A stretch of DNA of 64,000 bases from Minisyncoccota bacterium (lineage in GTDB: Bacteria; Patescibacteriota; Minisyncoccia; Phycocordibacterales; Phycocordibacteraceae): contig JBAYHD010000001.1 in the NCBI GenBank assembly GCA_041666305.1, positions 18,149 to 82,148 of the forward strand, in the 5' to 3' direction. The notes below the pieces were generated by a model. That model was not told where the DNA came from, did no database searches, and saw only the letters and a list, made by a program, of their open reading frames with translations. The position numbers and the translations under genes were made by a program. Positions 1,883 to 61,738 of the stretch are shown here, in pieces. Position 1 is the stretch's first letter, and each line of letters begins with the position of its first letter.

Positions 1883-3825
<1,943 letters not shown>

Positions 3826-3919
3826 ACGTATCTATATAAATGAATAATCGCCCTGTGTTGAAGGAGTATAGAGAAACGCTCGTCCACAAGCAAGTTGCAT
3901 CTCTCTACTCATCCGTGCT

Positions 3920-4175: not shown

Positions 4176-5918
4176 ATGGACGACACCGGCAGTTCTCACG
4201 AACGCTTCGGGCTTTGGCGAGAACGGTTGATGCGTTCTCGGAGCGTGCAGTCACTCGATCGTTTGCGCGAACATGTACATTCGTTCTCGTCGGGCGACCG
4301 TGTTCTGTTCTATCTGTTCGCGATCCTCGTCGGCATCGCCTCCATCTCGGGTCTCTACGCGCTTGAACAATCGCTTCTCAAAGAAGTCCCCGCCTACGGC
4401 GGAAGCTTGGTGGAAGGAGAGGTTGGAAGTCCGCAATTCATCAATCCGCTCCTCGCCATCAGCGACGCCGACCGCGACCTGTCCGCGCTGGTCTACGCCG
4501 GACTCATGGGACTTTCGGGCAATGGAACACTCACACCGGTGCTTGCGGAAAGTTACACGCTTTCGCCCGACGGAAAGACGTACACATTCGTCCTGCGCAA
4601 GAATGCGAAATTCATCGACGGCTCGCCCGTGACGGCGCAAGACGTGGTCTTTACCGTTCGGAAAGCACAAGATTCCGGACTTAAGAGCCCCGAATTCGCA
4701 AACTGGTCGGGCGTGAGCGTCATCGCAGACGATGCGCGCACGGTGCGCTTCACGCTCGCAAAACCATACGCGCCGTTTTTGGGCCTCACCACGCTCGGCA
4801 TTCTTCCCTCTCGCCTCTGGCAGAACATCAGCAACGAAGAATTCCCGTTCTCAAATCTCGAGACGAATCCTATCGGTGCGGGCCCTTTCAAAGTCGTGGA
4901 TATTTCACGCGATGCGTCCGGACTTATCAAGAGCGTATCGCTCGCGGAAAACCCGCAGTATGCGCTCGGTCGCCCGTATCTTGATGCCATCCGTTTTGAT
5001 TTCTACTCGCGCACCGAAGACCTTGCGTCAGCGGTGCAGAACGGTGCGGTGGAAAGCGCGTATGATGTCGGGACGAAAGGAGCTTTGACCGCACCCTATG
5101 CTCGCGTGTTCGGTGTGTTCTTTAATCCGAGCGAGAAGCAGGTGTACGCACGCGCGGAAGTGCGCAAAGCACTCTCGCTCGCGCTCGATCGAACTCGCAT
5201 TGTGGAGACGGTCCTCGGCGGCTATGCGACCGCGGTCATGGGTCCTGTGCCACCGGGAGAAAGCGTGAAGCAAGTACCGGTACCGCAATCGTCCGATCCG
5301 ACCGCGGCTGCCGCACAAGTGCTCCAATCGGCAGGCTGGACCTACGACGGAACGGCACGATTGTGGAAAAACACGGGCGCGAAGCAGGCCCTGGACCGCG
5401 TCACCATCCGCACGAGCAATGTTCCTGAATTGAAAAATGTCGCGAGCGCAGTGAAGAACGATTGGGAGCAGCTTGGCATTCCGGTCGACATCGAACTCTA
5501 CGAACCGGGTGACCTTTCGCAGAATGTCATCCGTCCGCGAAAGTACGAAGCGCTTCTCTATGGCATGGTCATCGGCCGCGATCAGGATCTGTATGCCTTC
5601 TGGCATTCGCAGGAACGCAATGATCCGGGGCTTAATATTGCGCTCTATGCGAATAAGACGGTTGATGCGCTTCTTGAAGATGCGCGCAGTACCGGCAATC
5701 AGTCGACACGCATTGCTGACCTCCAAAAGATAGAGGACACGATCGCGGCGGATTATCCGGCGGCATTCATTTATGCGCCTGATTTCACGTATGCGGTGCC
5801 GGATGACCTTCGCGGCGTGGTCCTCCCGCAGATCATCACACCGGCCGATCGCTTTGCGACGGTTGCGTCGTGGTATCGCTCAACTGATTCCGTATGGCCA
5901 TTTTTTGCGCATCGTTAG
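4176..5918 (+). CDS. ABC transporter substrate-binding protein, family 5 (peptide/nickel-type), N-terminal membrane anchor
   Basis: 580 aa. Contains SLVEGEVGSPQFINPLL, TYTFVLRKNAKFIDGSPVTAQDVVFT, EYPFSNLETNPIGAGPFK. No cognate permease or ATPase genes in the window. Confidence 0.7.
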   Translation: MDDTGSSHERFGLWRERLMRSRSVQSLDRLREHVHSFSSGDRVLFYLFAILVGIASISGLYALEQSLLKEVPAYGGSLVEGEVGSPQFINPLLAISDADRDLSALVYAGLMGLSGNGTLTPVLAESYTLSPDGKTYTFVLRKNAKFIDGSPVTAQDVVFTVRKAQDSGLKSPEFANWSGVSVIADDARTVRFTLAKPYAPFLGLTTLGILPSRLWQNISNEEFPFSNLETNPIGAGPFKVVDISRDASGLIKSVSLAENPQYALGRPYLDAIRFDFYSRTEDLASAVQNGAVESAYDVGTKGALTAPYARVFGVFFNPSEKQVYARAEVRKALSLALDRTRIVETVLGGYATAVMGPVPPGESVKQVPVPQSSDPTAAAAQVLQSAGWTYDGTARLWKNTGAKQALDRVTIRTSNVPELKNVASAVKNDWEQLGIPVDIELYEPGDLSQNVIRPRKYEALLYGMVIGRDQDLYAFWHSQERNDPGLNIALYANKTVDALLEDARSTGNQSTRIADLQKIEDTIAADYPAAFIYAPDFTYAVPDDLRGVVLPQIITPADRFATVASWYRSTDSVWPFFAHR

Positions 5919-13440: not shown

Positions 13441-14354
13441 GAACGAGAATAATCCGTGCGGGCGTAGCCTTGGTGCTTGCGCTTGCTGCAGGCGGTGTTG
13501 GATACACAGCTAGCAGTGGAGGAACGCAAGTCGCGAGTGTCAACGTTCCCGCACAGACAGTCTCGGCACCGGCCGCAAACTCCGTACGTGTCGTTTACAG
13601 TTTGGACCAAAAACAAAACGATAGAGAAATCATCGCGCTCATCGACGCGGCGAAGGACCATGTTTATTTCGCGATATACACCTTCACTCTTCCCTCTATT
13701 GCCGACGCGCTCGTCGCAGCGAAAAAACGCGGAGTGGATGTGCGCGGCATCGTCGATTCGGGGCAGAGCCGCGACAGCTACGGCAAACCGATTATCACGA
13801 AGCTCCTCGCCGCCGGCATCTCGGTCGTCACCGAGAAGCATGCGACCGGTAATGGCATCATGCATATCAAGACACTCGTCACCGAATCGGCGTATGCGAC
13901 CGGCAGTTATAACTGGACGAATTCTGCGACGACCATCAATGACGAAGTGCTCGAGATCGGCACCGATCCGGCACTCCGACAAGCGTATGAAAACATATTA
14001 AAGAAACTTTTGGACGCCTACGCAGGCAACACCGCGGCCGCTAACGCGGCCGCGCCTGTTTCCATCGGCACCATCGACTACACTGATGCCTCAGCGCACG
14101 TGGGCGACCTCGCATCCGTGCGCGGCACGCTCGTAAAAGCCTATACCTCGGCCTCCGGCACGGTCTTCCTCGACTTCTGCAAAAACTATAAGACCTGTCC
14201 CTTCTCGGGCGTCATCTTCGCCGACGATGCGAAGCAGTTCGACGACTTAGCAAAGCTCGCCGGCAAGACAATAACCCTCACCGGCAAGATCAGTTCGTAT
14301 CAAGGCAAGGCCGAAATCGTCCTCTCTGACCCGAGCCAACTTACTTCTCTTTAG
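13437..14354 (+). CDS. phospholipase D-like (HKD motif) domain protein, secreted/anchored
   Basis: 305 aa. N-terminal signal/anchor, HIKTLVTESAYATGSYNWTNSA (HxK(x)4D(x)6GSxN), then a C-terminal beta-rich domain ending ...KISSYQGKAEIVLSDPSQLTSL. Confidence 0.65.
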   Translation: MRTRIIRAGVALVLALAAGGVGYTASSGGTQVASVNVPAQTVSAPAANSVRVVYSLDQKQNDREIIALIDAAKDHVYFAIYTFTLPSIADALVAAKKRGVDVRGIVDSGQSRDSYGKPIITKLLAAGISVVTEKHATGNGIMHIKTLVTESAYATGSYNWTNSATTINDEVLEIGTDPALRQAYENILKKLLDAYAGNTAAANAAAPVSIGTIDYTDASAHVGDLASVRGTLVKAYTSASGTVFLDFCKNYKTCPFSGVIFADDAKQFDDLAKLAGKTITLTGKISSYQGKAEIVLSDPSQLTSL

Positions 14355-14814: not shown

Positions 14815-14888
14815 CTCACCGGCAAGATACCTCGTATCAAGGCAAGGCTGAAATCGTCCTCTCCGACCCAAGCCAGCTCTCGCATTGA
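14815..14888 (+). repeat. degenerate duplicate (~85% identity) of the PLD-like gene 3' end (14277..14354), including its own stop codon (SYQGKAEIVLSDPSQLSH*)
   Basis: Direct alignment of 14277-14354 against 14815-14888. Also preceded by a GCATGCACGC..GCGTGCAAGCATGC palindrome at 14773-14806. Confidence 0.8.
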
Positions 14889-16686: not shown

Positions 16687-16713
16687 AAAACCGCCCGAAA
16701 GGGCGGTTTTCTT
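16687..16713. terminator. bidirectional intrinsic terminator (aaaaccgccc-gaaa-gggcggtttt) between rplT (+) and the convergent MBL gene (-)
   Basis: Perfect 10-bp stem flanked by A- and T-runs. Confidence 0.7.
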
Positions 16714-26735: not shown

Positions 26736-26774
26736 TATCCCCATTTTGACCCGGTCGGGTCATTATTGGGATAC
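26736..26774. repeat. 39-bp imperfect-palindromic element, copy 1 (TATCCCCATTTTGACCCGGTCGGGTCATTATTGGGATAC); perfect 16-bp inner palindrome TGACCCGGTCGGGTCA
   Basis: 100% identical to 27379..27417. Flanks the wHTH/PaaX-like gene. Confidence 0.9.
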
Positions 26775-26795: not shown

Positions 26796-27377
26796 ATGGG
26801 GACAGTTGAAGTGGGGGCAAAAATAAAAAGAAGAAAGAGAGATCTGCGGAGTGCAGCGCTCATCACCATCGGTTTGGCCGGGACTATCGCCGTCGCCGCC
26901 GTTGCACCAAACATGTTCCAGCTCCTCGGAAAGACCGGTCTACTTACCCGTCTTAAGTATCGCAGTAAGGGAGTACTCGCTCGATTGAAGTACAAAGGCG
27001 AGATCGAATTTGTAGAAAAGAACGGGAAGAAATATGTACGACTAACCGACAAGGGTGAAAAAATGTTGGATCTCAATCGCGAGAAATTAAATCTAACGAA
27101 CAAGAAACCGAAAAGGTGGGATCGCCGATACCGGCTGGTCATGTTCGATATACCGGAGAAACGGAACAACATCCGCAAGCTCTTACGTTTTGAGATGCGG
27201 GAGATCGGTTTCTTGCGTATACAGGACAGCGTCTGGGTCTACCCTTTTGATTGCGAAGAGTTCATCACACTCCTTAAGGCGGACTTGCGGGTTGGTAAGG
27301 ATATTCTCTACGCAGTTGTAGAAGAAATAGAAAACGACAAGTGGATCCGCAAACACTTTAATCTACCCCTTAAATAA
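26796..27377 (+). CDS. PaaX-like winged-helix regulator family protein with Cas2-like beta-alpha-beta-beta motif (paralog 1)
   Basis: 193 aa. N-terminal hydrophobic helix, wHTH-like KYKGEIEFVEKNGKKYVRLTDKGEKML, then RWDRRYRLVMFDIPEKRNNIRKLLRFEMREIGFLRIQDSVWVYPFDCE. This pattern matches PaaX (WDGxWxLVxF...R..LRxxLxxxGFgxLQxSVWV) and the Cas2 YDV...KRR...G.RVQNSVF signature. Convergent with the r-protein genes. Confidence 0.55.
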   Translation: MGTVEVGAKIKRRKRDLRSAALITIGLAGTIAVAAVAPNMFQLLGKTGLLTRLKYRSKGVLARLKYKGEIEFVEKNGKKYVRLTDKGEKMLDLNREKLNLTNKKPKRWDRRYRLVMFDIPEKRNNIRKLLRFEMREIGFLRIQDSVWVYPFDCEEFITLLKADLRVGKDILYAVVEEIENDKWIRKHFNLPLK

Positions 27378-27378
27378 C

Positions 27379-27417
27379 TATCCCCATTTTGACCCGGTCG
27401 GGTCATTATTGGGATAC
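27379..27417. repeat. 39-bp palindromic element, copy 2 (identical to 26736..26774); similarity continues ~15 bp beyond (GTGGTTT(A)GTAT)
   Basis: Direct comparison. Confidence 0.9.
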
Positions 27418-30782: not shown

Positions 30783-31133
30783 TTATTTCTTTGCGGGCGC
30801 GGCGGCGGTAGACTCCTTCGCCGACTTCGCAGATGCGATCTCAGCTTCAGCCTTTTTCGCCTCCATCTCCTTCTGCATCTTGCCGCCGTGGCGGAGGAAC
30901 TTCTTGGTCGGGGAAAATTCGCCGAGACGGTGTCCGACCATATCCTCATTCACGAGGACTTCAATATGAGACTTGCCGTTATGTACACCGAAGGTGAAGC
31001 CGATCATTTCTGGGCTTATCTGGCTGCGACGCGCCCAGGTCTTCACCACGCCCGCAGTGGCGGGTTTGAGGTTTTGGACTTTCTTGAGGAGTTTGGCGTC
31101 CACGAAGGGTCCTTTCTTTATCGAGCGTGACAT
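30783..31133 (-). CDS. rpsS: 30S ribosomal protein S19 (Lys/Ala-rich C-terminal extension)
   Basis: [20 protein letters not shown]...[35 protein letters not shown]. Confidence 0.93.
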
Positions 31134-31144
31134 AAAAGTAATGA

Positions 31145-31198
31145 AAAGCCCGCACTGCGGGATAGCTCAAAGATACAGGAAGTCATTTGCAAAGTCAA
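31145..31198 (-). promoter_or_regulatory. putative sigma70-like promoter (TTGACT-N17-TATCTT, minus strand) plus 5'-leader hairpin CUAUCCCGCAGUGCGGGCUUUU 11 nt upstream of the rpsS start codon
   Basis: Hexamers and hairpin read from the minus strand. A near-identical hairpin precedes rpsL at 42604..42626. Confidence 0.35.
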
Positions 31199-31352
31199 AC
31201 GTACCGTTCCAAAACACCCGCATAAATCCTAATCCGTTCCAGAACCTTGACAATTTCCAAAATGTGCACGTATTTTGCATTTCGTCGCGTGTTTGTTTTT
31301 TCTGTGCAATGGAGTACCCTCTACCTCGGACCCATTTGAGGAGGAACCGCAG

Positions 31353-31565
31353 ATGAAAATGAAGTACAAATTGGTATATATGCAGCCCCTGCCGCTGGAA
31401 GACGGCCAGAAACAGCCCAAGTATGAACGGAAGCAGGAGATCTTTGAAGTTGAGCCTGAGGAAGCGGAGGAGAAAAAAAGAAAGTTTCTCGGGGAAGAGT
31501 CGGTGACGTTCGGCTTCGTTACGTTCAGCCGAGAACAAATTACCTTCATGCCCACGCTCGTGTAG
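31353..31565 (+). CDS. small acidic hypothetical protein inserted (convergently) between rpsS and rplB
   Basis: 70 aa, MKMKYKLVYMQPLPLEDGQKQPKYERKQEIFEVEPEEAEEKKRKF. Strong SD gaggagga 8 nt upstream. Own promoter-like TTGACA-N18-TATTTT at 31247-31276. Own terminator downstream. Confidence 0.5.
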   Translation: MKMKYKLVYMQPLPLEDGQKQPKYERKQEIFEVEPEEAEEKKRKFLGEESVTFGFVTFSREQITFMPTLV

Positions 31566-31587
31566 GCAACCCGCCCACCGATGAACG

Positions 31588-31628
31588 AAAAGCCCGCCAA
31601 AACTTAGGCGGGCTTTATTTATTTTCGC
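31588..31628. terminator. bidirectional intrinsic terminator (aagcccgcc-aaaactta-ggcgggctt with T-runs on both strands) between the inserted small gene and the rplB 3' end
   Basis: Inverted repeat with flanking A/T runs. Confidence 0.65.
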
Positions 31629-31634
31629 TAAACG

Positions 31635-33624: not shown

Positions 33625-34239
33625 TTATGCGGAGACTACTTCAAGCAATGTGCCGCGGCGACCCGGAACGGCGCCGCTGACGATGATCTTTCCCTCTTTC
33701 GCATCGACCACGAGCACCTTGAGGTTCGTCACCGTGACGCGATCAGAACCCATGCGACCGGCCATGCGGATGCCCTTTGCGACACGACCGCCCGCGCGAC
33801 CACCCGAACCGCCGATAGAGCCCGGAGAGCGCTCGGTGTGCTTCTGGCCGTGAGAACGCGGGCCGCCGTGGAAGCCATGGCGCTTCACCACGCCGGCGAA
33901 GCCCTTGCCTTTCGTGATGCCGGAAACTTGCACGACGTCGCCGACCGCAAAAATTGATGCATCGATCGTATCGCCAACGGCGGCAGCGTTGTCAGTGCGG
34001 AATTCGCGAATTGCTTCGTAGCCCTTGCCTTTCGTGTGTCCGAGGACTGGCTTAGAAATATTCTTCGTGCGGCGTTCGCCCTGGCCGACCTGAACCGCCG
34101 AATATTTATCCTTGCCGTCCGCCATCTTCACTTGCGTGACGGTAATCGGCTCGGCCAAGAGAACAGTCCCCGCATGCGCAAGGCCATCCGCCGTAAAGAT
34201 ACGGGTCATTTTTTCTTTCTTAGCGAGGATGAATTTCAT
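33625..34239 (-). CDS. rplC: 50S ribosomal protein L3
   Basis: MKFILAKKEKMTRIFTADG...GFAGVVKRHGFHGGPRSHGQKHTERSPGSIG. ATG 34239 preferred. Confidence 0.93.
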   Translation of the reverse strand: MKFILAKKEKMTRIFTADGLAHAGTVLLAEPITVTQVKMADGKDKYSAVQVGQGERRTKNISKPVLGHTKGKGYEAIREFRTDNAAAVGDTIDASIFAVGDVVQVSGITKGKGFAGVVKRHGFHGGPRSHGQKHTERSPGSIGGSGGRAGGRVAKGIRMAGRMGSDRVTVTNLKVLVVDAKEGKIIVSGAVPGRRGTLLEVVSA

Positions 34240-34367
34240 TGTGTATGCAAATCGCGCCACAGCAATCGCTGGGCGCGATTTGCTGGAGGTCCCGCGGGGG
34301 ACATAGCGATTTGAGCACTCTACACGAGCCTCTTAAAAGATGCAAATCACTATGCTAGGCTTACGTA

Positions 34368-34592
34368 ATGGAAGATGGCCCGGAAAACAGAGCCCTCAGA
34401 AGCAAAAATGCGATTGATTTAGAAATTATGGGCTTGAGAATCAAGCTACAGCAACTCGAAACCAAAACCGCAATTGGGGGGTCTACTGAAATAAAAGCTT
34501 TGATTGAATCTGCAGGCAAAGACCAAGAGGTTCAAAGAATAGAAACGAAAATAGAGGAATTACGGCAGGAAAAGTCATCCTCAAAAGCGTAA
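34368..34592 (+). CDS. small coiled-coil hypothetical protein (rplC-rpsJ insertion)
   Basis: 74 aa, heptad-like LEIMGLRIKLQQLETK...IETKIEELRQEK. No SD, so weak call. Confidence 0.3.
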   Translation: MEDGPENRALRSKNAIDLEIMGLRIKLQQLETKTAIGGSTEIKALIESAGKDQEVQRIETKIEELRQEKSSSKA

Positions 34593-34642
34593 GGTCGCGA
34601 GGTGTGGCTCGCGACCCGTAATTCTGTTGATATGGTGCGGTG

Positions 34643-34987
34643 CTACAAGTAGCCTTGCTGATGGCAGTGGACTGCGGCAGTGCTGTAAAGCGTCTGAAAA
34701 AACTGGGTGTACCACTCGTTCCCAAATCGCTTGGCAACGCGGAGGCCGTGCCGAGTACGCCGCCGAACAATCTTCCAGTCCTCAGGTGTAACACGAGTGC
34801 GCTCCGTAAAGCCGTTAACCTGCTCGTGCAATTCGCGCAGACGTAATTCCACCCGAGCCTCGATAGGAACAGTTCTCTCGGCTTGGCGCATGATCCACGC
34901 CATCTCCTGCGGACCAACCCGCCCCGTACATCCTGGTTTGCGCAGTGGCTTAATGCCAAGCGCCGCTAGATCCAAGTTTTTGCTCAT
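34643..34987 (-). CDS. hypothetical protein (rplC-rpsJ insertion)
   Basis: 114 aa from ATG 34987 (MSKNLDLAALGIKPLRKPGCTGRVGPQEMAWIMRQAERTVPIEARVELRLRELHEQ...). SD aggag 7 nt upstream. Confidence 0.45.
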   Translation of the reverse strand: MSKNLDLAALGIKPLRKPGCTGRVGPQEMAWIMRQAERTVPIEARVELRLRELHEQVNGFTERTRVTPEDWKIVRRRTRHGLRVAKRFGNEWYTQFFQTLYSTAAVHCHQQGYL

Positions 34988-35032
34988 TTCATACTCCTCG
35001 TTATGTAACCAGGCAGAGTAAAGCACATTCTC

Positions 35033-35072
35033 AAAAACACACAACCGCCTCTGCGGGCGGTTGTGTGTTTCT
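35033..35072 (-). terminator. intrinsic terminator, hairpin family ACACACAACCGCC-loop-GGCGGTTGTGTGT (minus strand followed by UUUUUGA); downstream of PaaX-like paralog 2
   Basis: Perfect 13-bp stem. A near-identical copy is at 36117..36156. Confidence 0.65.
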
Positions 35073-35088
35073 TGCTAATTACCATCGT

Positions 35089-35126
35089 GTTCGTTAATTC
35101 TAACGACCGTTGGAGATAACGAACAT
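35089..35126. repeat. 38-bp palindromic element GTTCGTTAATTCTAACGACCGTTGGAGATAACGAACAT (termini GTTCGTTA/TAACGAAC), copy A, 3'-flank of paralog 2
   Basis: Shares conserved termini and centre (28/38 identity) with copy B at 35745..35782. Confidence 0.75.
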
Positions 35127-35129
35127 TGG

Positions 35130-35744
35130 TTACTCTACTAGCGGGAGATTAAAATGCTTGCGGAGTTTTTCGTCGTGTTCTATCTCATCAGCGACTATAC
35201 AGAGAATACCGTGACCAAGTTTTAGATGCGTGCGCAAAAAGACAAGGAGTTTTTCACACGGATATGGATATGCCCATGCACTGTTCTGTACCTTAACGAA
35301 GCCGATTTCTCTGAGCGTCTCTCGTAATTCGTCACGCACTTCCCGTCGCCGCTCCCACACATCAAACATGATAATCCGCCACTTCTGATCCCATTTCTTC
35401 TGATTTTTAGGCCGCACTTCTTCGCGCTCTGCAAGTTCTTCGGCAATCTTCATCCCCTTCTCTGTTAGCTCTATATGAAAGCCGTTTTGCCCCTTCACTC
35501 GCCGAAATATACCCTGTTTAATCAGCTCAGAATATTTTTGACTCACGCGCCTCTTAAGACGAGGCGAAGGCCCAATGACTTTCTCTACATATTTGAGTAG
35601 TCTCACTGCGTTCGGCGCCATAACTATCAGACCTACTCCAATCGTGAGATACGCCGAGAGCAAAACAGCATTTTTAATTTTGGTGCGCTTTGTCCCGCGC
35701 TGAACCCTCTCCTCAATATTCAAGAGCCGTTTCTTTTTCTCCAT
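35130..35744 (-). CDS. PaaX-like wHTH regulator family protein with Cas2-like motif (paralog 2)
   Basis: 204 aa. GQNGFHIELTEKGMKIAEEL (wHTH wing), KKWDQKWRIIMFDVWERRREVRDELRETLREIGFVKVQNSAWAYPYPCE, C-terminal ...DEKLRKHFNLPL shared with paralog 1. Clearly homologous to 26796..27377. Confidence 0.55.
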   Translation of the reverse strand: MEKKKRLLNIEERVQRGTKRTKIKNAVLLSAYLTIGVGLIVMAPNAVRLLKYVEKVIGPSPRLKRRVSQKYSELIKQGIFRRVKGQNGFHIELTEKGMKIAEELAEREEVRPKNQKKWDQKWRIIMFDVWERRREVRDELRETLREIGFVKVQNSAWAYPYPCEKLLVFLRTHLKLGHGILCIVADEIEHDEKLRKHFNLPLVE

Positions 35745-35782
35745 GTTCGTTATTGTACACGGTCGTTGGACTTAACGAACAT
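35745..35782. repeat. 38-bp palindromic element copy B (GTTCGTTATTGTACACGGTCGTTGGACTTAACGAACAT), abutting the start codon of paralog 2
   Basis: Direct comparison with 35089..35126. Confidence 0.75.
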
Positions 35783-35890
35783 AGGATGTGTACAAATATG
35801 GGAGCGGAGCGTGGCCTCCTCTGCCCTACCCCGCCCAAAGATGCAAGAAAACAACCGGGGTCGCGAGTGATTTGCTCGCAACCCCGTATT

Positions 35891-36082
35891 TCAGCTGCAT
35901 CCGTGCGGCGAAGGCCGACCAATCGGATGTTTCTCGATTTCATCACCCATTTCTGCCCAGTAACAATCGGCATGCACCGCAACCTTTTGACCTTCGACGA
36001 CAATGTACTCCAACTCCCCTTCAATATGTGGTCCGTCGATTAAATCATGACATATGCCGCAATAAACCGAACTTAGATCCAT
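35891..36082 (-). CDS. small Cys/His-rich (zinc-ribbon-like) hypothetical protein
   Basis: 63 aa from ATG 36082: MDLSSVYCGICHDLIDGPHIEGELEYIVVEGQKVAVHADCYWAEM. SD aaggaggg upstream. Confidence 0.45.
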   Translation of the reverse strand: MDLSSVYCGICHDLIDGPHIEGELEYIVVEGQKVAVHADCYWAEMGDEIEKHPIGRPSPHGCS

Positions 36083-36116
36083 GATTAAGCCCTCCTTTCT
36101 GCAGGCGAGTCTAGCA

Positions 36117-36156
36117 TAAAACACACAACCGCCCGTGAGGGCGGTTGTGTGTTTCT
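36117..36156 (-). terminator. second copy of the ACACACAACCGCCC-gtga-GGGCGGTTGTGTGT hairpin terminator, ~140 nt downstream of rpsJ
   Basis: Near-identical to 35033..35072, including flanking TTCTTG(G/C). Confidence 0.65.
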
Positions 36157-36299
36157 TGGCTGTCTTTGGAATTCTAGCGGTTTCAAAACTACTGTAGATG
36201 CTAGGCGCGACGAGAGAATTTCTGGAGACGTACTCAAATGTACGGCGGAAGAAGTTCTCGAAGTCGCAACAACGCAGATGCAGTAGTTTTGGAAGCGCG

Positions 36300-36704
36300 C
36301 TACACCATTTTCACATCTATCGTCACTCCTGACGGAAGGTTGAGGTTCGTGAGGGCCTCGATGACCTTCGGCGAGGGGTTCATGATGTCGATGAGGCGCT
36401 TATGAATGCGCATCTCGAACTGTTCGCGTGCGTCTTTATGGACGAAGGTCGAACGGTTCACGGTCCAGCGCTTTATCTCGGTGGGAAGCGGAACCGGGCC
36501 CACGACGATCGCATCAAAGCGAGCGGCGGTGTCCATGATCTGCTTCACCGAGAGGTCCAATATCTTGTGCTCATAGGCACGGACGCGGATGCGGAGCTTG
36601 TGCTCCACCGGAGCCGACGCTACAGCTTTCTTCGCTGCGGCTTTCGCCCGCGGCGCTTTGGGCGCCGCGACTTTCTTTGCTTTAGGTTTCGCCGCTGTTG
36701 CCAT
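36300..36704 (-). CDS. rpsJ: 30S ribosomal protein S10 (with ~30-aa Ala/Lys-rich N-terminal extension)
   Basis: KLRIRVRAYEHKILDLSVKQIMDTAARFDAIVVGPVPLPTEIKRWTVNRSTFVHKDAREQFEMRIHKRLIDI. Confidence 0.92.
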   Translation of the reverse strand: MATAAKPKAKKVAAPKAPRAKAAAKKAVASAPVEHKLRIRVRAYEHKILDLSVKQIMDTAARFDAIVVGPVPLPTEIKRWTVNRSTFVHKDAREQFEMRIHKRLIDIMNPSPKVIEALTNLNLPSGVTIDVKMV

Positions 36705-37966: not shown

Positions 37967-38009
37967 CCTGCCCCGTAGCCAAGCATTCCGATGCTTGTGG
38001 TACTGGGGT
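37967..38009. repeat. imperfect long hairpin element CCTGCCCCGTAGCCAAGCATTCCGATGCTTGTGGTACTGGGGT in the tuf 5' region; second copy (with a 72-bp internal insertion) at 61621..61738
   Basis: Direct sequence comparison. Contains AAGCAT-TCCG-ATGCTT inner hairpin. Confidence 0.6.
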
Positions 38010-38496: not shown

Positions 38497-38565
38497 GCAC
38501 AACAGCCGCCCTCCGGGCGGCTGTTGTGCCGAAAGTTAGGACACCCGGTGTCCTAACTTTTTACT
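38497..38565. terminator. two tandem perfect hairpins (gcacaacagccgccc-tcc-gggcggctgttgtgc; aagttaggacac-ccgg-gtgtcctaactt+tttt)
   Basis: Inverted repeats read directly. The second has a + strand T-tract. Confidence 0.45.
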
Positions 38566-38602
38566 TGCGAGATGCGATGATGTCGGCGGCAACGTTGTTC
38601 GG

Positions 38603-38750
38603 TGGTGTGCAACACCAGGTGTTGAACAAAATTATTTGCGGGATGCGATGATGTCGGCCGCGACGTTGGTGGGGACCACGTCGTAGTGATTGAACTCCAT
38701 CGTCATACTGCCGCGGCCTTCGGTCATGGAGCGAAGCGTGGTGGCGTAGA
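38603..38750 (-). repeat. degenerate duplicate (~80% identity) of the fusA 3' end plus its terminator hairpin (original 39200..39350); includes an in-frame remnant of the last ~39 codons and stop; an additional nested partial copy at 38567..38602
   Basis: Direct alignment: ...gtgtgcaacaccaggtgttgaacaaaattatttgcggg(a/a)(t/g)gcgatgatgtc... occurs at both loci. Confidence 0.8.
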
Positions 38751-38785: not shown

Positions 38786-39145
38786 ATGAATATCCTCATC
38801 GCAGTTCTCGGACTGTTTGCAATCGATTACTATGGGTTGCGTTCATATTTGAGTCAGCGTGGCAAACCTACGGAAGGTTTAACAAAAAATATCTTACTAG
38901 CCTATAAAGACACCGCCGCCTGCGGGATTGCAGTTTTGCTTATCTCACTACCATTCTTCCTCGTTGATACTGGTGCCCCACGACCCTATGCCGAGCTGCT
39001 TTCGATGGCTCTTTGGGGTGCGGGATTCGTCCTACCTCTACCCTTCTTCATAAAAAAGAGAGTTAATATTCCTTGGTTGACTGCGATTGGTTTTATCTTT
39101 GGTCCATTGGTTTTTATTTTGCCTGCACTGTACGCAACCTTTTAA
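38786..39145 (+). CDS. small 3-4-TM membrane protein (hypothetical), convergent cargo between fusA and its duplicated 3' end
   Basis: 119 aa. [26 protein letters not shown]...[37 protein letters not shown]. Confidence 0.45.
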
Positions 39146-39229: not shown

Positions 39230-41377
39230 TTATTTGCGGGAGGCGATGATGTCCGCGGCCACATTAGTAGGAACTACATCGTAGTGGTCAAACTCCATCG
39301 TCATCGAGCCGCGGCCTTCGGTCATGGAGCGGAGAGTGGTGGTGTAGCCGAACATTTCGGAAAGCGGAACTTTCGCCTTCACGACTTTGTTGAGACCTCG
39401 TTCTTCCATTCCCTCGATTTGTCCGCGTTTGCCGGAGAGATTACCCGTGATGTCGCCCATGAATTGGTCCGGAATAATGACTTCCACTCGCATAATCGGC
39501 TCAAGGATGACGGCCTTTGCTTTGCTTGCCGCTTCTTGAAATGCCATGGATGCCGCGATTTTGAAAGCGATTTCTGAGGAGTCCACATCGTGGTATGAGC
39601 CGTCGTAAAGGTCGACTGAGATATCCACCATCGGGAAGCCGGCGAGGAAGCCTCGCGCCATGGCCTCGCGGAGACCTTTCTCGATTGGCGAGATGAATTC
39701 CTGAGGAATGACGCCGCCTTTGATGTTATTGATGAATTCGAAATGGTCTTCGCGCGTAATATTTTTCGCGACCTTCTTCTCCGAATCTACCGGTTCCATC
39801 TTCTTCATCTTGATCTTCACATGACCGTACTGGCCGCGGCCGCCGGTCTGCTTGATGTACTTCCCTTCCGCTTCCGAAGAACCCATAATCGTTTCGCGAT
39901 ATGCCACCTGCGGCTTTCCCACATCCGCAACGACGTTGAACTCGCGCTTCATGCGGTCCACGAGGATTTCGAGGTGCAATTCGCCCATGCCGGAAATAAT
40001 CGTTTCATTCGTCTCTTCGTCGGTCTTGATGCGGAACGTCGGGTCTTCGTCGGAAAGTTTGCGGAGCGCAATGCCCATTTTCTCCTGGTCGGCTTTGGTC
40101 TTGGGCTCGATGCGGAGCGACACCACCGGTTCAGGGAATTTAATTTCCTCGAGCACGATAGGATTTGCCTCATCACAGAGCGTGTGCGAAGTTTTCGTAT
40201 CTTTGAGACCCACTGCGGCCGCGATTTCTCCGGTAAACACCTGTGCGACTTCTTCGCGCTTGTCGGCTTGCAAGCGAACGATGCGGCCGACGCGTTCCTT
40301 GGAACCCGTCGTTGAGTTGTATACATACGAGCCGGCGGTGAGTGTGCCTGAATACACACGGAAGAAAGTCAGCGCGCCGACAAACGGATCGGTCTGGAGT
40401 TTGAATGCCATCGCGCAAAACGGTTCATCATCTGACGCATGACGCTCAACCGGTTCATTCGTCTTCGGGTTTATGCCGGTGACGGGCTTGAGGTCCAAGG
40501 GCGACGGGAGATAATCCACGACCGCATCAAGTACGAGCTGTGCGCCTTTATTCTTAAGGGCAGAACCGGTGTACACCGGGAACACTTCGTTCGCGATGAC
40601 CGCCTTGCGCAAAATCGCCTTCAACTCATCGATGTTCGGCTCTTTGCCTTCGAGATACGCACCCATCGCCGCATCGTCTTGCTCCACAATGCGCTCAATG
40701 AGTTCGGCGCGGTACTTCTTCGCGTCTTCAAGGAGATTCGCGGGAATCTCGCCCTCTACCACCTCTTCGCCCATGTTGCCGGTAAAGGTGTATGCCTTCA
40801 TCGTGAGCAGATCCACGCAACCTTCATGCTGTGCCTCTTCTCCGATAGGAATTTGCATGCGAATGGCCTTCGGCGAGAGCCGGTCCAAAATGCTTGCATA
40901 GGAACGCTCAAATGACGCTCCTATGCGATCCAATTTATTGATGAAGCAAACACGCGGCACCGCGGCTTCGTCGGCATAACGCCAGTTTGTTTCGGACTGC
41001 GGTTCCACGCCGGCCACGCCGTCAAAGACGACAACCGCACCGTCGAGCACGCGCATGGAGCGCTTCACTTCTGCCGTGAAGTCGATGTGTCCGGGGGTGT
41101 CGATGATATTGAAACGATATTTCTTGGAGATATCCTTCTTGTCTTTCTCAATCGTTTTTGTCCAGAAGCAGGTAATGGCGGCGGCGGTGATGGTGATGCC
41201 GCGCTCGCGCTCTTGTTCCATCCAGTCGGTGGTCGTTTCTCCTTCGTGCACTTCACCGATCTTGTGTTGGGAACCTGTATAGAAAAGGATGCGCTCGCTG
41301 ACAGTGGTCTTGCCGGCGTCAATGTGCGCAATGATGCCGAAGTTCCTGACCTTCTCGAGTGGATAGTCTCTGTTCAT
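39230..41377 (-). CDS. fusA: elongation factor G
   Basis: 715 aa. NFGIIAHIDAGKTTVSERILFYTG... Confidence 0.97.
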   Translation of the reverse strand: MNRDYPLEKVRNFGIIAHIDAGKTTVSERILFYTGSQHKIGEVHEGETTTDWMEQERERGITITAAAITCFWTKTIEKDKKDISKKYRFNIIDTPGHIDFTAEVKRSMRVLDGAVVVFDGVAGVEPQSETNWRYADEAAVPRVCFINKLDRIGASFERSYASILDRLSPKAIRMQIPIGEEAQHEGCVDLLTMKAYTFTGNMGEEVVEGEIPANLLEDAKKYRAELIERIVEQDDAAMGAYLEGKEPNIDELKAILRKAVIANEVFPVYTGSALKNKGAQLVLDAVVDYLPSPLDLKPVTGINPKTNEPVERHASDDEPFCAMAFKLQTDPFVGALTFFRVYSGTLTAGSYVYNSTTGSKERVGRIVRLQADKREEVAQVFTGEIAAAVGLKDTKTSHTLCDEANPIVLEEIKFPEPVVSLRIEPKTKADQEKMGIALRKLSDEDPTFRIKTDEETNETIISGMGELHLEILVDRMKREFNVVADVGKPQVAYRETIMGSSEAEGKYIKQTGGRGQYGHVKIKMKKMEPVDSEKKVAKNITREDHFEFINNIKGGVIPQEFISPIEKGLREAMARGFLAGFPMVDISVDLYDGSYHDVDSSEIAFKIAASMAFQEAASKAKAVILEPIMRVEVIIPDQFMGDITGNLSGKRGQIEGMEERGLNKVVKAKVPLSEMFGYTTTLRSMTEGRGSMTMEFDHYDVVPTNVAADIIASRK

Positions 41378-61620: not shown

Positions 61621-61738
61621 CCTGCCCCGTAAGCAAAGCTTTCTCTCTGCGCTCATTCGGGAATATTGAAGTCAGACTTCAATTTCTCCTCATTCGCTTG
61701 ATAGTAGCCAAGCATTCTGATGCTTGTGGTACCGGGGT
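61621..61738. repeat. second copy of the CCTGCCCCGTA...GTAGCCAAGCATTCTGATGCTTGTGGTACCGGGGT element (see 37967..38009) split by a 72-bp insert containing a TTGAAGTC-A-GACTTCAA palindrome
   Basis: Direct comparison. Confidence 0.55.

Follow-up and report, generated by a model that had tools for sequence, protein, structure and literature searches.

Results

A small gene between two palindromes in the S10 operon

We analysed a stretch of 64,000 nucleotides from a Minisyncoccota bacterium (GenBank assembly GCA_041666305.1, contig JBAYHD010000001.1, positions 18,149 to 82,148 of the forward strand), referred to here as the window, and concentrated on a small regulator gene that lies between the ribosomal protein genes rpsJ and rplC with a 38-bp palindrome on each side. 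The minus strand of the window carries the str/S10/spc ribosomal protein cluster, in which rpsJ and rplC are separated by an insert of 2.04 kb; its G+C content is 44–52% in most of the intervals measured, compared with 55–64% in the flanking ribosomal genes. Along the direction of transcription the order is rpsJ-T1-zn63-hairpin-P1-palindrome-regulator gene-palindrome-T2-orf114-cc74-P2-rplC, where T1 and T2 are terminator-like hairpins, P1 and P2 promoter-like elements and zn63, orf114 and cc74 small genes (Table 1). A paralogous gene, with palindromes of its own, lies between rpsN and rplE. All the features that an earlier sequence-only reading had listed for this interval are present, including the near-identical hairpins that bracket the regulator gene; the coordinates given there for the small open reading frames (ORFs) are those of ATG starts within slightly longer listed ORFs.

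The gene product resembles a short form of PaaX

In profile searches the product of 35130..35744 matched PaaX_M (PF20803), the Cas2-like central domain of PaaX, with 67.1 bits and that of 26796..27377 with 57.0 bits (cut-off 24), and the two proteins are 35% identical to each other, which bears out the proposal that the two genes are paralogs. The match to the PaaX model TIGR02277 was only partial (E 1.8e-8, 34 bits against an equivalog cut-off of 264.55), and Cas2 models scored below their curated cut-offs (PF09827, 17.9 against 23.8 bits; TIGR01573, 23.5 against 24.5 bits). The AlphaFold model (predicted local distance difference test score, pLDDT, 78) comprises a long basic N-terminal helix, a winged helix-turn-helix (wHTH) with helices at residues 44–57 and 63–76 and a wing at 80–93, a linker helix and a beta-alpha-beta-beta-alpha-beta domain; sequence-profile matches for the wHTH were weak. 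The best fold match in the Protein Data Bank was E. coli PaaX (8a39; E 7e-6 over 197 columns), followed by the PaaX-like proteins 3l09 and Rv0674, and the two halves of the protein, searched separately, gave F-93 wHTH and Cas2 fold matches. No match to the PaaX_C domain was found in the protein, which stops at residue 204, right past the central domain. The gene thus probably encodes a short PaaX-family transcription factor, here called mini-PaaX, with a wHTH and a Cas2-like domain and without the C-terminal effector-binding domain.

The family forms 636 clusters at 50% identity (E ≤ 1e-30), nearly all of 180–205 aa, and its named sources are Paceibacteria/Parcubacteria groups; among 2.9 million viral contigs there was a single match. 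Profile scans of the regulator detected no recombinase or transposase domain, and it contains no HUH or Tyr motifs. A PADLOC scan of the two regulator proteins returned sub-threshold Cas2 matches only and no cas1, and PHROGs returned nothing; together with the single viral match, this led us to rule out a defence or phage origin. No paa genes lie near the regulator gene, whose neighbours are ribosomal protein genes, and we found no literature on a mini-PaaX family in Patescibacteria.

The palindromes share an architecture and vary in their arms

The two palindromes of the regulator gene have identical 9-nt arms, TGTTCGTTA/TAACGAACA, separated by 20 bp; aligned as direct repeats they show 76% identity, and aligned as inverted repeats 82% complementarity. 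The upstream copy abuts the start codon, as had been reported, its first base being the A of the ATG, and the paralog is indeed flanked by its own distinct pair, two 39-mers that are 100% identical. Neither type has any other copy in the window, and a scan of the window for the generic architecture found only the four gene-flanking sites, against 0.03 expected by chance; generic genome repeats were therefore ruled out for this window. The possibility, raised beforehand, that such palindromes are scattered irrespective of the genes received weak support from 56 solo copies in metagenomes (described below) and none from the window itself. For the palindromes we found no Rfam family, no tRNA target and no CRISPR (clustered regularly interspaced short palindromic repeats) array, and there are no array-like direct repeats in the window.

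For the family as a whole, we examined 79 loci from species-representative genomes, with 83 instances of the gene; these and other related loci are cited by L numbers. Centre-aligned palindromes that match upstream and downstream were present at 57 of the 83 genes, and looser criteria give more. The arms vary from locus to locus and agree between the two copies of a locus, and 31 loci have the centre CGRYCG, 23 the centre CTATAG. Symmetry is 0.89–1.0 at distances of 1–3 from the dyad, 0.6–0.8 at 4–9 and 0.84–0.98 at 10–17, and falls to background beyond 18, a profile that suggests a two-fold symmetric protein reading two blocks per half-site about one helical turn apart. Judged by the asymmetry of the centre, the paired sites are direct in 27 cases, inverted in 14 and tied in 16; in the TGTTCGTTA-type loci, hereafter the q1 group, the pair is inverted and the gene was never seen inverted. 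After removal of overall protein divergence, arm divergence tracks the recognition helix (partial correlation r 0.19) and the N-terminal basic helix (0.17), with values of 0.00–0.06 for other regions; the co-variation between wHTH and palindrome that the sequence-only reading had proposed to look for is therefore present in the recognition helix, as a weak signal for which shared ancestry is a confounder.

Sites of two different specificities can cluster, as seen in L180 (~5686-5763), where only 12 nt separate a solo TGTTCGTTA-type site from a CTATAG-type palindrome, CAAACTTGGTCCTATAGGACCAAGTTTG. L091 holds three TGTTCGTTA-type sites (3123-3160, 3790-3827 and 4286-4323), the third of them after rpsJ beside a terminator, and a zn63-like gene is thus also bracketed by sites there.

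The upstream copy contains a promoter signal

In the window the upstream palindrome holds a -10 box, TACAAT (35757-35752), followed by the 7-nt spacer AACGAAC and then by the ATG. In the 30 loci in which the centre of the site lies 16–19 nt before the ATG, the gene-proximal half reads T80 A93 T53 A67 A63 T90 and the -10 box stands 6–7 nt before the ATG, the arm ending on the A of this codon; the signal is absent from the distal half and from the downstream copy in these loci. Where the site lies further upstream, a -10-like box is still found 6–9 nt before the ATG. Over the whole family, TAnnnT occurs 5–9 nt before the ATG in 61/83 genes, compared with 39/133 neighbouring genes and 102/1660 random positions. 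Because the -10 box sits so close to the ATG, the mRNA of the regulator gene is most likely leaderless, and protein bound at the site would occlude its promoter.

The site recognised by PaaX is TGATTC-N27-GAATCA, and through steric hindrance PaaX represses transcription from its own promoter, Px (PMC9493321). With 9-bp arms, a 20-bp spacer and a -10 box inside, the upstream palindrome has the make-up of a PaaX-type operator and is predicted to be one; since it overlaps the promoter, protein bound to it would keep RNA polymerase out, and the gene would be autorepressed in the manner of PaaX at Px. Of the two suggestions made by the sequence-only reading, mobile cassettes or paired regulator/operator modules, the second is favoured by this precedent, by PaaX being the best fold match and by the presence of -10 box and start codon in the upstream palindrome.

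Among neighbouring genes in L001-L079, a -10-like TAnnnT was present 5–9 nt before the called ATG in 29%, against 6% at random positions, and Shine-Dalgarno-like motifs were rare (8/73), which suggests that these Patescibacteria may often use leaderless mRNAs.

The downstream copy and the solo sites

The second palindrome follows the stop codon. The order stop codon, site, terminator was found in 18 of the 19 q1-group loci examined, and in the nineteenth (L190), where the downstream site has one arm mismatch, hairpin and order are still visible. Outside the q1 group a terminator hairpin follows the site in only 3/55, and the rule that the downstream site always precedes a terminator, which holds in the q1 group, was consequently rejected for the family. 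An operator of the next gene was also rejected, because about half of the loci have that gene in convergent orientation and no -10 signal is present in the distal half of the site.

A metagenome scan for TGTTCGTTA-N18-22-TAACGAACA returned 120 stretches with 135 matches. The spacing was N20 in 94 of the 135, and the centre was CGRYCG in 88 of these 94; at other spacings this centre was not found, bar one 37-nt copy with a one-base deletion that flanks the L177 gene. The confinement of the centre to N20 spacing argues that the sites are real and the centre constrained. No regulator gene lies near 56 of the 88 real metagenome sites. These solo sites are intergenic and biased to gene 3′ ends, 19 of the 56 stand beside terminator-like hairpins, and the genes next to them are a mixed set (unknown small proteins, a ParE toxin, an NYN domain protein, an IMP cyclohydrolase); one solo site, on the 3′ side of a 366-aa gene, persists in five diverged relatives, where its centre is constrained and its middle varies. 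The solo sites were ruled out as leaderless promoters of other genes, since only regulator genes start at a site end. Relative to the adjacent ending gene the strand bias of the solo sites is not significant (GGTC 19, GACC 11), and this lack of orientation bias argues for a symmetric function at the DNA level.

The same observations bear on a role in RNA, by which transcript hairpins would be bound or cleaved by a Cas2/VapD-like RNase domain, either to process or stabilise mRNA or as a fused toxin-antitoxin system. Cas2 and VapD relatives can be RNases, the downstream copy of the q1 group always lies in the transcribed 3′ region ahead of a terminator, and the solo copies lie past stop codons, some of them beside hairpins as described. 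We nevertheless consider such a role very doubtful, as the leaderless start would leave the upstream copy outside its own mRNA, neither the solo-site strands nor the terminators outside the q1 group show the pattern expected, the middle of the stem is often unpaired while sequence-specific arms fit reading of duplex DNA by a wHTH, and the comparison with Rfam gave no family.

In 814 kb of related loci we counted 108 flanking and 12 solo sites, which makes the copy number low. This has to be set against an explanation of the kind known from repetitive extragenic palindromes (REP) and their associated tyrosine transposases (RAYT, TnpA-REP), in which an active Cas2-like nuclease would read the palindromes as DNA hairpins and maintain or spread them as extragenic elements. 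The likeness consists of a small gene flanked by its own extragenic palindrome, of solo copies in extragenic regions at gene 3′ ends and of several protein-palindrome families per lineage, each paralog having its own sequence; in addition, the family keeps the Cas2 motifs, Q-x-S and an Asp closing beta-1, without variation, and a conserved centre between variable arms resembles a nick site in a hairpin loop. However, this centre is symmetric and paired and hence not a loop, the mini-PaaX fold is unrelated and without HUH or Tyr motifs, its Cas2 profile scores stay under the curated cut-offs, copies are far fewer (with no solo site in the 64-kb window), and the upstream copy doubles as promoter and operator, a predicted function that would fully explain it. 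On balance, a REP/RAYT-like or nuclease system appears highly improbable.

A protein acting mainly as an insulator or roadblock, which would prevent read-through or convergent transcription where transcription units end and would repress itself only as a secondary effect, is in our view unlikely. It would account for the 3′ bias of the solo sites, for the sites that adjoin terminators and for the bracketing of the gene in tightly packed operons, where upstream neighbours end -59 to +100 nt from the site in most loci; in read-through RNA, moreover, the start codon would be buried in the stem of the palindrome. The PaaX family offers no precedent for it, however, and the q1 sites are already followed by intrinsic terminators.

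Conserved position and traces of a probable old insertion

Every TGTTCGTTA-type regulator gene with readable flanks lies between rpsJ and rplC and is co-oriented, in about 20 relatives with ribosomal proteins 75–98% identical to their window counterparts; this constancy of place and orientation marks the gene as conserved content of the lineage. The sequence-only reading had itself allowed that conservation at one operon position would make the insert ordinary lineage-specific operon content, and this is the pattern found. Related paralogs occupy rpsG|fusA (L004, L005 and L177) and fusA|tuf (L002 and L003), the rpsN|rplE type is present in L125 and its site is empty in L139, L179 and L155, and distant members adjoin gyrA, glyS, secA, rpoC/dnaG, secY-adk-map and others, each distant context being common to several genomes and having its own arm sequence.

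The layout of the q1 group is rpsJ-T1-P1-site-gene-site-T2-(cargo)-P2-rplC. In relatives the P1 and P2 elements are 32–63 nt long and up to 100% identical within one genome, and the T1/T2 duplication is seen in the window, L001 and L102. Elsewhere the bracketing duplicates have diverged and consist of the 3′ end of fusA (L002 and L003, at -220 and +89 relative to the gene), of rpsG (L005, at -137 and +77) or of rplE (L125, at 2560-2593 and 3344-3378). Judged from these sequences, old insertions would have duplicated tens to ~150 bp of their target, for example, we infer, through integration of a circle by homologous recombination, and such a target duplication leaves the interrupted gene or promoter intact. 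An old duplicative insertion would also explain the duplicated terminator hairpins of the rpsJ–rplC interval. The palindromes, on the other hand, are not the insertion junctions, because the duplicated host segments lie outside them, with other genes in between.

A third AACCGCC-loop-GGCGGTT hairpin is found at 16689-16708; this terminator type recurs in the lineage and is kept after the regulator gene in relatives. The window also contains the fusA 3′ end with the following hairpin in three copies (38561-38602, 38632-38749 and 39230-39347; 79–87% identical), which bracket a 119-aa membrane-protein ORF (38786..39145, plus strand); in L002 and L003 the fusA 3′-end duplication brackets a mini-PaaX cassette. 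The fusA end looks like a reused insertion hotspot.

The suggestion of site-specific mobile cassettes takes the palindromes as the ends or recombination sites of a unit moved by the encoded protein or by a host recombinase, with the solo sites as excision footprints. It could draw on paralogs in different spacers of the same operons (rpsG|fusA, fusA|tuf, rpsJ|rplC and rpsN|rplE), on the empty site of the paralog in three relatives, on the lower G+C of the insert, on the existence of solo copies and on the duplicated host sequence that brackets the cassettes. We nonetheless regard it as very unlikely, given a gene position and orientation unchanged in about 20 relatives, palindromes that are not junctions, a mixed orientation of the site pairs (inverted in the q1 group, the gene never being so), no recombinase or transposase domain, one match in the viral contigs, and a solo site by the 366-aa gene that is kept in five diverged relatives with a constrained centre. 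What stands of the earlier proposal is the insertion as such, to which the duplicated host sequence and the absence of the paralog from the same site in three relatives attest; palindromes as its ends do not.

A proposed resident, self-regulating module

Putting the protein, its operators and its autorepression together as one reading, we propose, with a probability of about 0.6, that the locus is a self-regulating PaaX-type module with flanking operators, resident in the operon and not an active mobile element. The arrangement appears to recur in hundreds of Patescibacteria genomes, which favours a resident module. The Cas2-like domain is a dimerisation motif in PaaX, and a dimer would most likely occupy the two-fold symmetric 38-bp site, with the variable 9-bp arms setting specificity and the 6-bp centre, CGRYCG or CTATAG, being common to the whole family. 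Transcription would start at or beside the ATG, from a -10 box in the gene-proximal half of the upstream site, and be blocked by the bound protein. The site past the stop codon would be a further binding site under selection, most likely either cooperating with the first through a DNA loop or forming a roadblock that keeps transcription of the surrounding operon out of the small autoregulated gene. The module would be old, vertically inherited content of the Paceibacteria lineage, which would have entered the rpsJ–rplC spacer long ago, in an insertion that left the rpsJ terminator and the rplC promoter in duplicate.

Several points weigh against this proposal. The TM-score (template modelling score) of the PaaX fold match is modest, at 0.49; two Cas2 motifs, the Asp that ends beta-1 and Q-x-S, are invariant in the family and leave room for a catalytic or RNA-related role; the covariation is weak; and no residue was found that separates the CGRYCG from the CTATAG class. 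From a simple repressor, furthermore, one would expect neither a second site in the 3′ untranslated region nor the contexts of the solo sites (15 convergent, 10 tandem, 1–2 divergent). The downstream neighbour of the regulator gene is convergent in 29/54 loci, so that the second site is not the operator of a downstream promoter; a DNA loop between the flanking sites, or a roadblock or insulator role, would fit.

Neighbouring small genes and other features of the window

No family matches were found for zn63, orf114 and cc74 (profile searches, PADLOC, PHROGs), each of which has its own terminator-like hairpin. Homologs of zn63 lie beside the regulator only in L088, L091 and L102, a cc74 homolog occurs only in L169 among the orthologous loci, and orf114, which is absent from the other orthologous loci, has 3 homologs among 5.8 billion sequences. 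Of the two roles that had been suggested for them, that of partners of the regulator was ruled out, since they have no families, orf114 is an orphan and zn63 and cc74 occur in few orthologous loci; judged by sequence and distribution, they are variable cargo of the rpsJ–rplC spacer.

Table 1. Features of the rpsJ–rplC interval and of the paralogous locus (window coordinates).
Feature	Coordinates	Strand	Remarks
rpsJ	36300..36704	-	Pfam Ribosomal_S10, E 6.5e-33
T1, terminator-like hairpin after rpsJ	36118..36158	-	ACACAACCGCCC-loop-GGGCGGTTGTGT, then T run; 93% identical to T2
zn63, Cys/His-rich small protein, 63 aa, variable cargo (predicted)	35891..36082	-	no family match
Terminator-like hairpin 3′ of zn63	35856..35886	-	
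P1, copy of rplC promoter-like element	35819..35849	-	TTGCAT-N17-CAGAGG; -10 degenerate in this genome
Upstream 38-bp palindrome, predicted operator	35744..35781	.	holds -10 box TACAAT and A of ATG (35744)
mini-PaaX regulator gene, 204 aa	35130..35744	-	basic N-terminal helix, wHTH, Cas2-like central domain, without PaaX_C
Downstream 38-bp palindrome	35088..35125	.	4 nt past stop codon, ahead of T2
T2, terminator hairpin of the regulator gene	35034..35074	-	kept 3′ of downstream site in orthologous loci
orf114, orphan protein, 114 aa, cargo (predicted)	34643..34987	-	
cc74, predicted helical protein, 74 aa, cargo (predicted)	34368..34592	+	opposite strand; followed by hairpin 34594-34617
P2, promoter-like element	34316..34349	-	TTGCAT-N17-TAGAGT; ~50 nt upstream of rplC
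rplC	33625..34260	-	Pfam Ribosomal_L3
Upstream 39-bp palindrome of paralog	26736..26774	.	core CGGTCG
Paralogous mini-PaaX gene, 193 aa	26796..27377	+	between rpsN and rplE, antisense to spc operon
Downstream 39-bp palindrome of paralog	27379..27417	.	100% identical to upstream copy

The S10 operon is interrupted a third time between rpsS and rplB (31134-31634), by a region of lower G+C with a 96-aa ORF on the opposite strand (31275..31565) that has no family match; hairpin-forming inverted repeats lie at 31051-31067 and 31145-31161. A 35-nt sequence, GTAGCCAAGCATTCCGATGCTTGTGGTACTGGGGT, occurs twice in the window (37975-38009 and 61704-61738), with 94% identity between copies 23.7 kb apart; one copy stands just upstream of tuf, and ARAGORN did not identify the sequence as a tRNA. 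A 47-nt direct repeat is present at 14295-14341 and 14832-14878, the copies being 91% identical and 537 nt apart.

Discussion

On our best reading the module is of a known kind, a PaaX-type autorepressor, and what is new is its short form, widespread in Patescibacteria, with a second site and a few solo sites. PaaX of E. coli and Pseudomonas is a phenylacetyl-CoA-responsive repressor of paa genes (8a39, 3l09), and mini-PaaX shares with it the wHTH and the PF20803 domain, long-spaced inverted repeats (9-bp arms about 20 bp apart here, 6-bp arms with an N27 spacer in PaaX) and a predicted repression of its own promoter by occlusion. It differs in its length (about 200 aa instead of about 300), in the lack of PaaX_C, in a score far under the equivalog cut-off and in the absence of paa genes nearby. 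Further differences are the conserved 6-bp centre of the predicted operator, the second copy past the stop codon and the predicted leaderless promoter inside the operator, as well as the many paralogs with different arm specificities that Patescibacteria hold. The looping auto-repressors of the lac, gal and deo systems likewise combine an operator at the promoter with another copy of it a few hundred bp away; here, by contrast, a loop would enclose the whole regulator gene, and no tetramerisation element was identified in it.

The likeness to Cas2 and VapD lies in the ferredoxin-like fold, with a beta-1 strand ending in an FD motif and a Q-x-S-x-W strand that align with Cas2 profiles, and the flanking of the gene by two palindromic repeats of 36–39 bp recalls CRISPR. 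Unlike in those systems, the scores are under the cut-offs, a DNA-binding domain is fused, the window has no repeat array, the ‘spacer’ is the gene itself and no cas1 was matched in the two regulator proteins, to which that scan was confined. There is a small chance that protein and repeat form a pair doing something not yet described. As a co-evolving pair, in which a Cas2-fold protein recognises the palindromes that bracket it, it might cut, bridge or copy them, or constitute a protein-dependent boundary or termination system for transcription units in Patescibacteria; we give this little credence. If true, the pair would be a new functional class, and should the repeats be read by the Cas2 domain, the pair could be related, as a free-living form, to the part of CRISPR adaptation that recognises repeats.

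For the PaaX-type module that we favour, the second site and the 3′-biased solo sites may point to a boundary function without a described counterpart in the PaaX family. The duplications of host sequence show, in addition, how even the most conserved operons can take up extra genes and stay intact. Almost no Patescibacteria have been cultivated, and next to nothing is known of how they regulate their genes. In a family of at least 636 clusters, in which the predicted binding site lies beside the gene, pairs of protein and DNA specificity can be read from sequence, and this would supply orthogonal repressor-operator pairs ready for use and open up the study of regulation in Patescibacteria.

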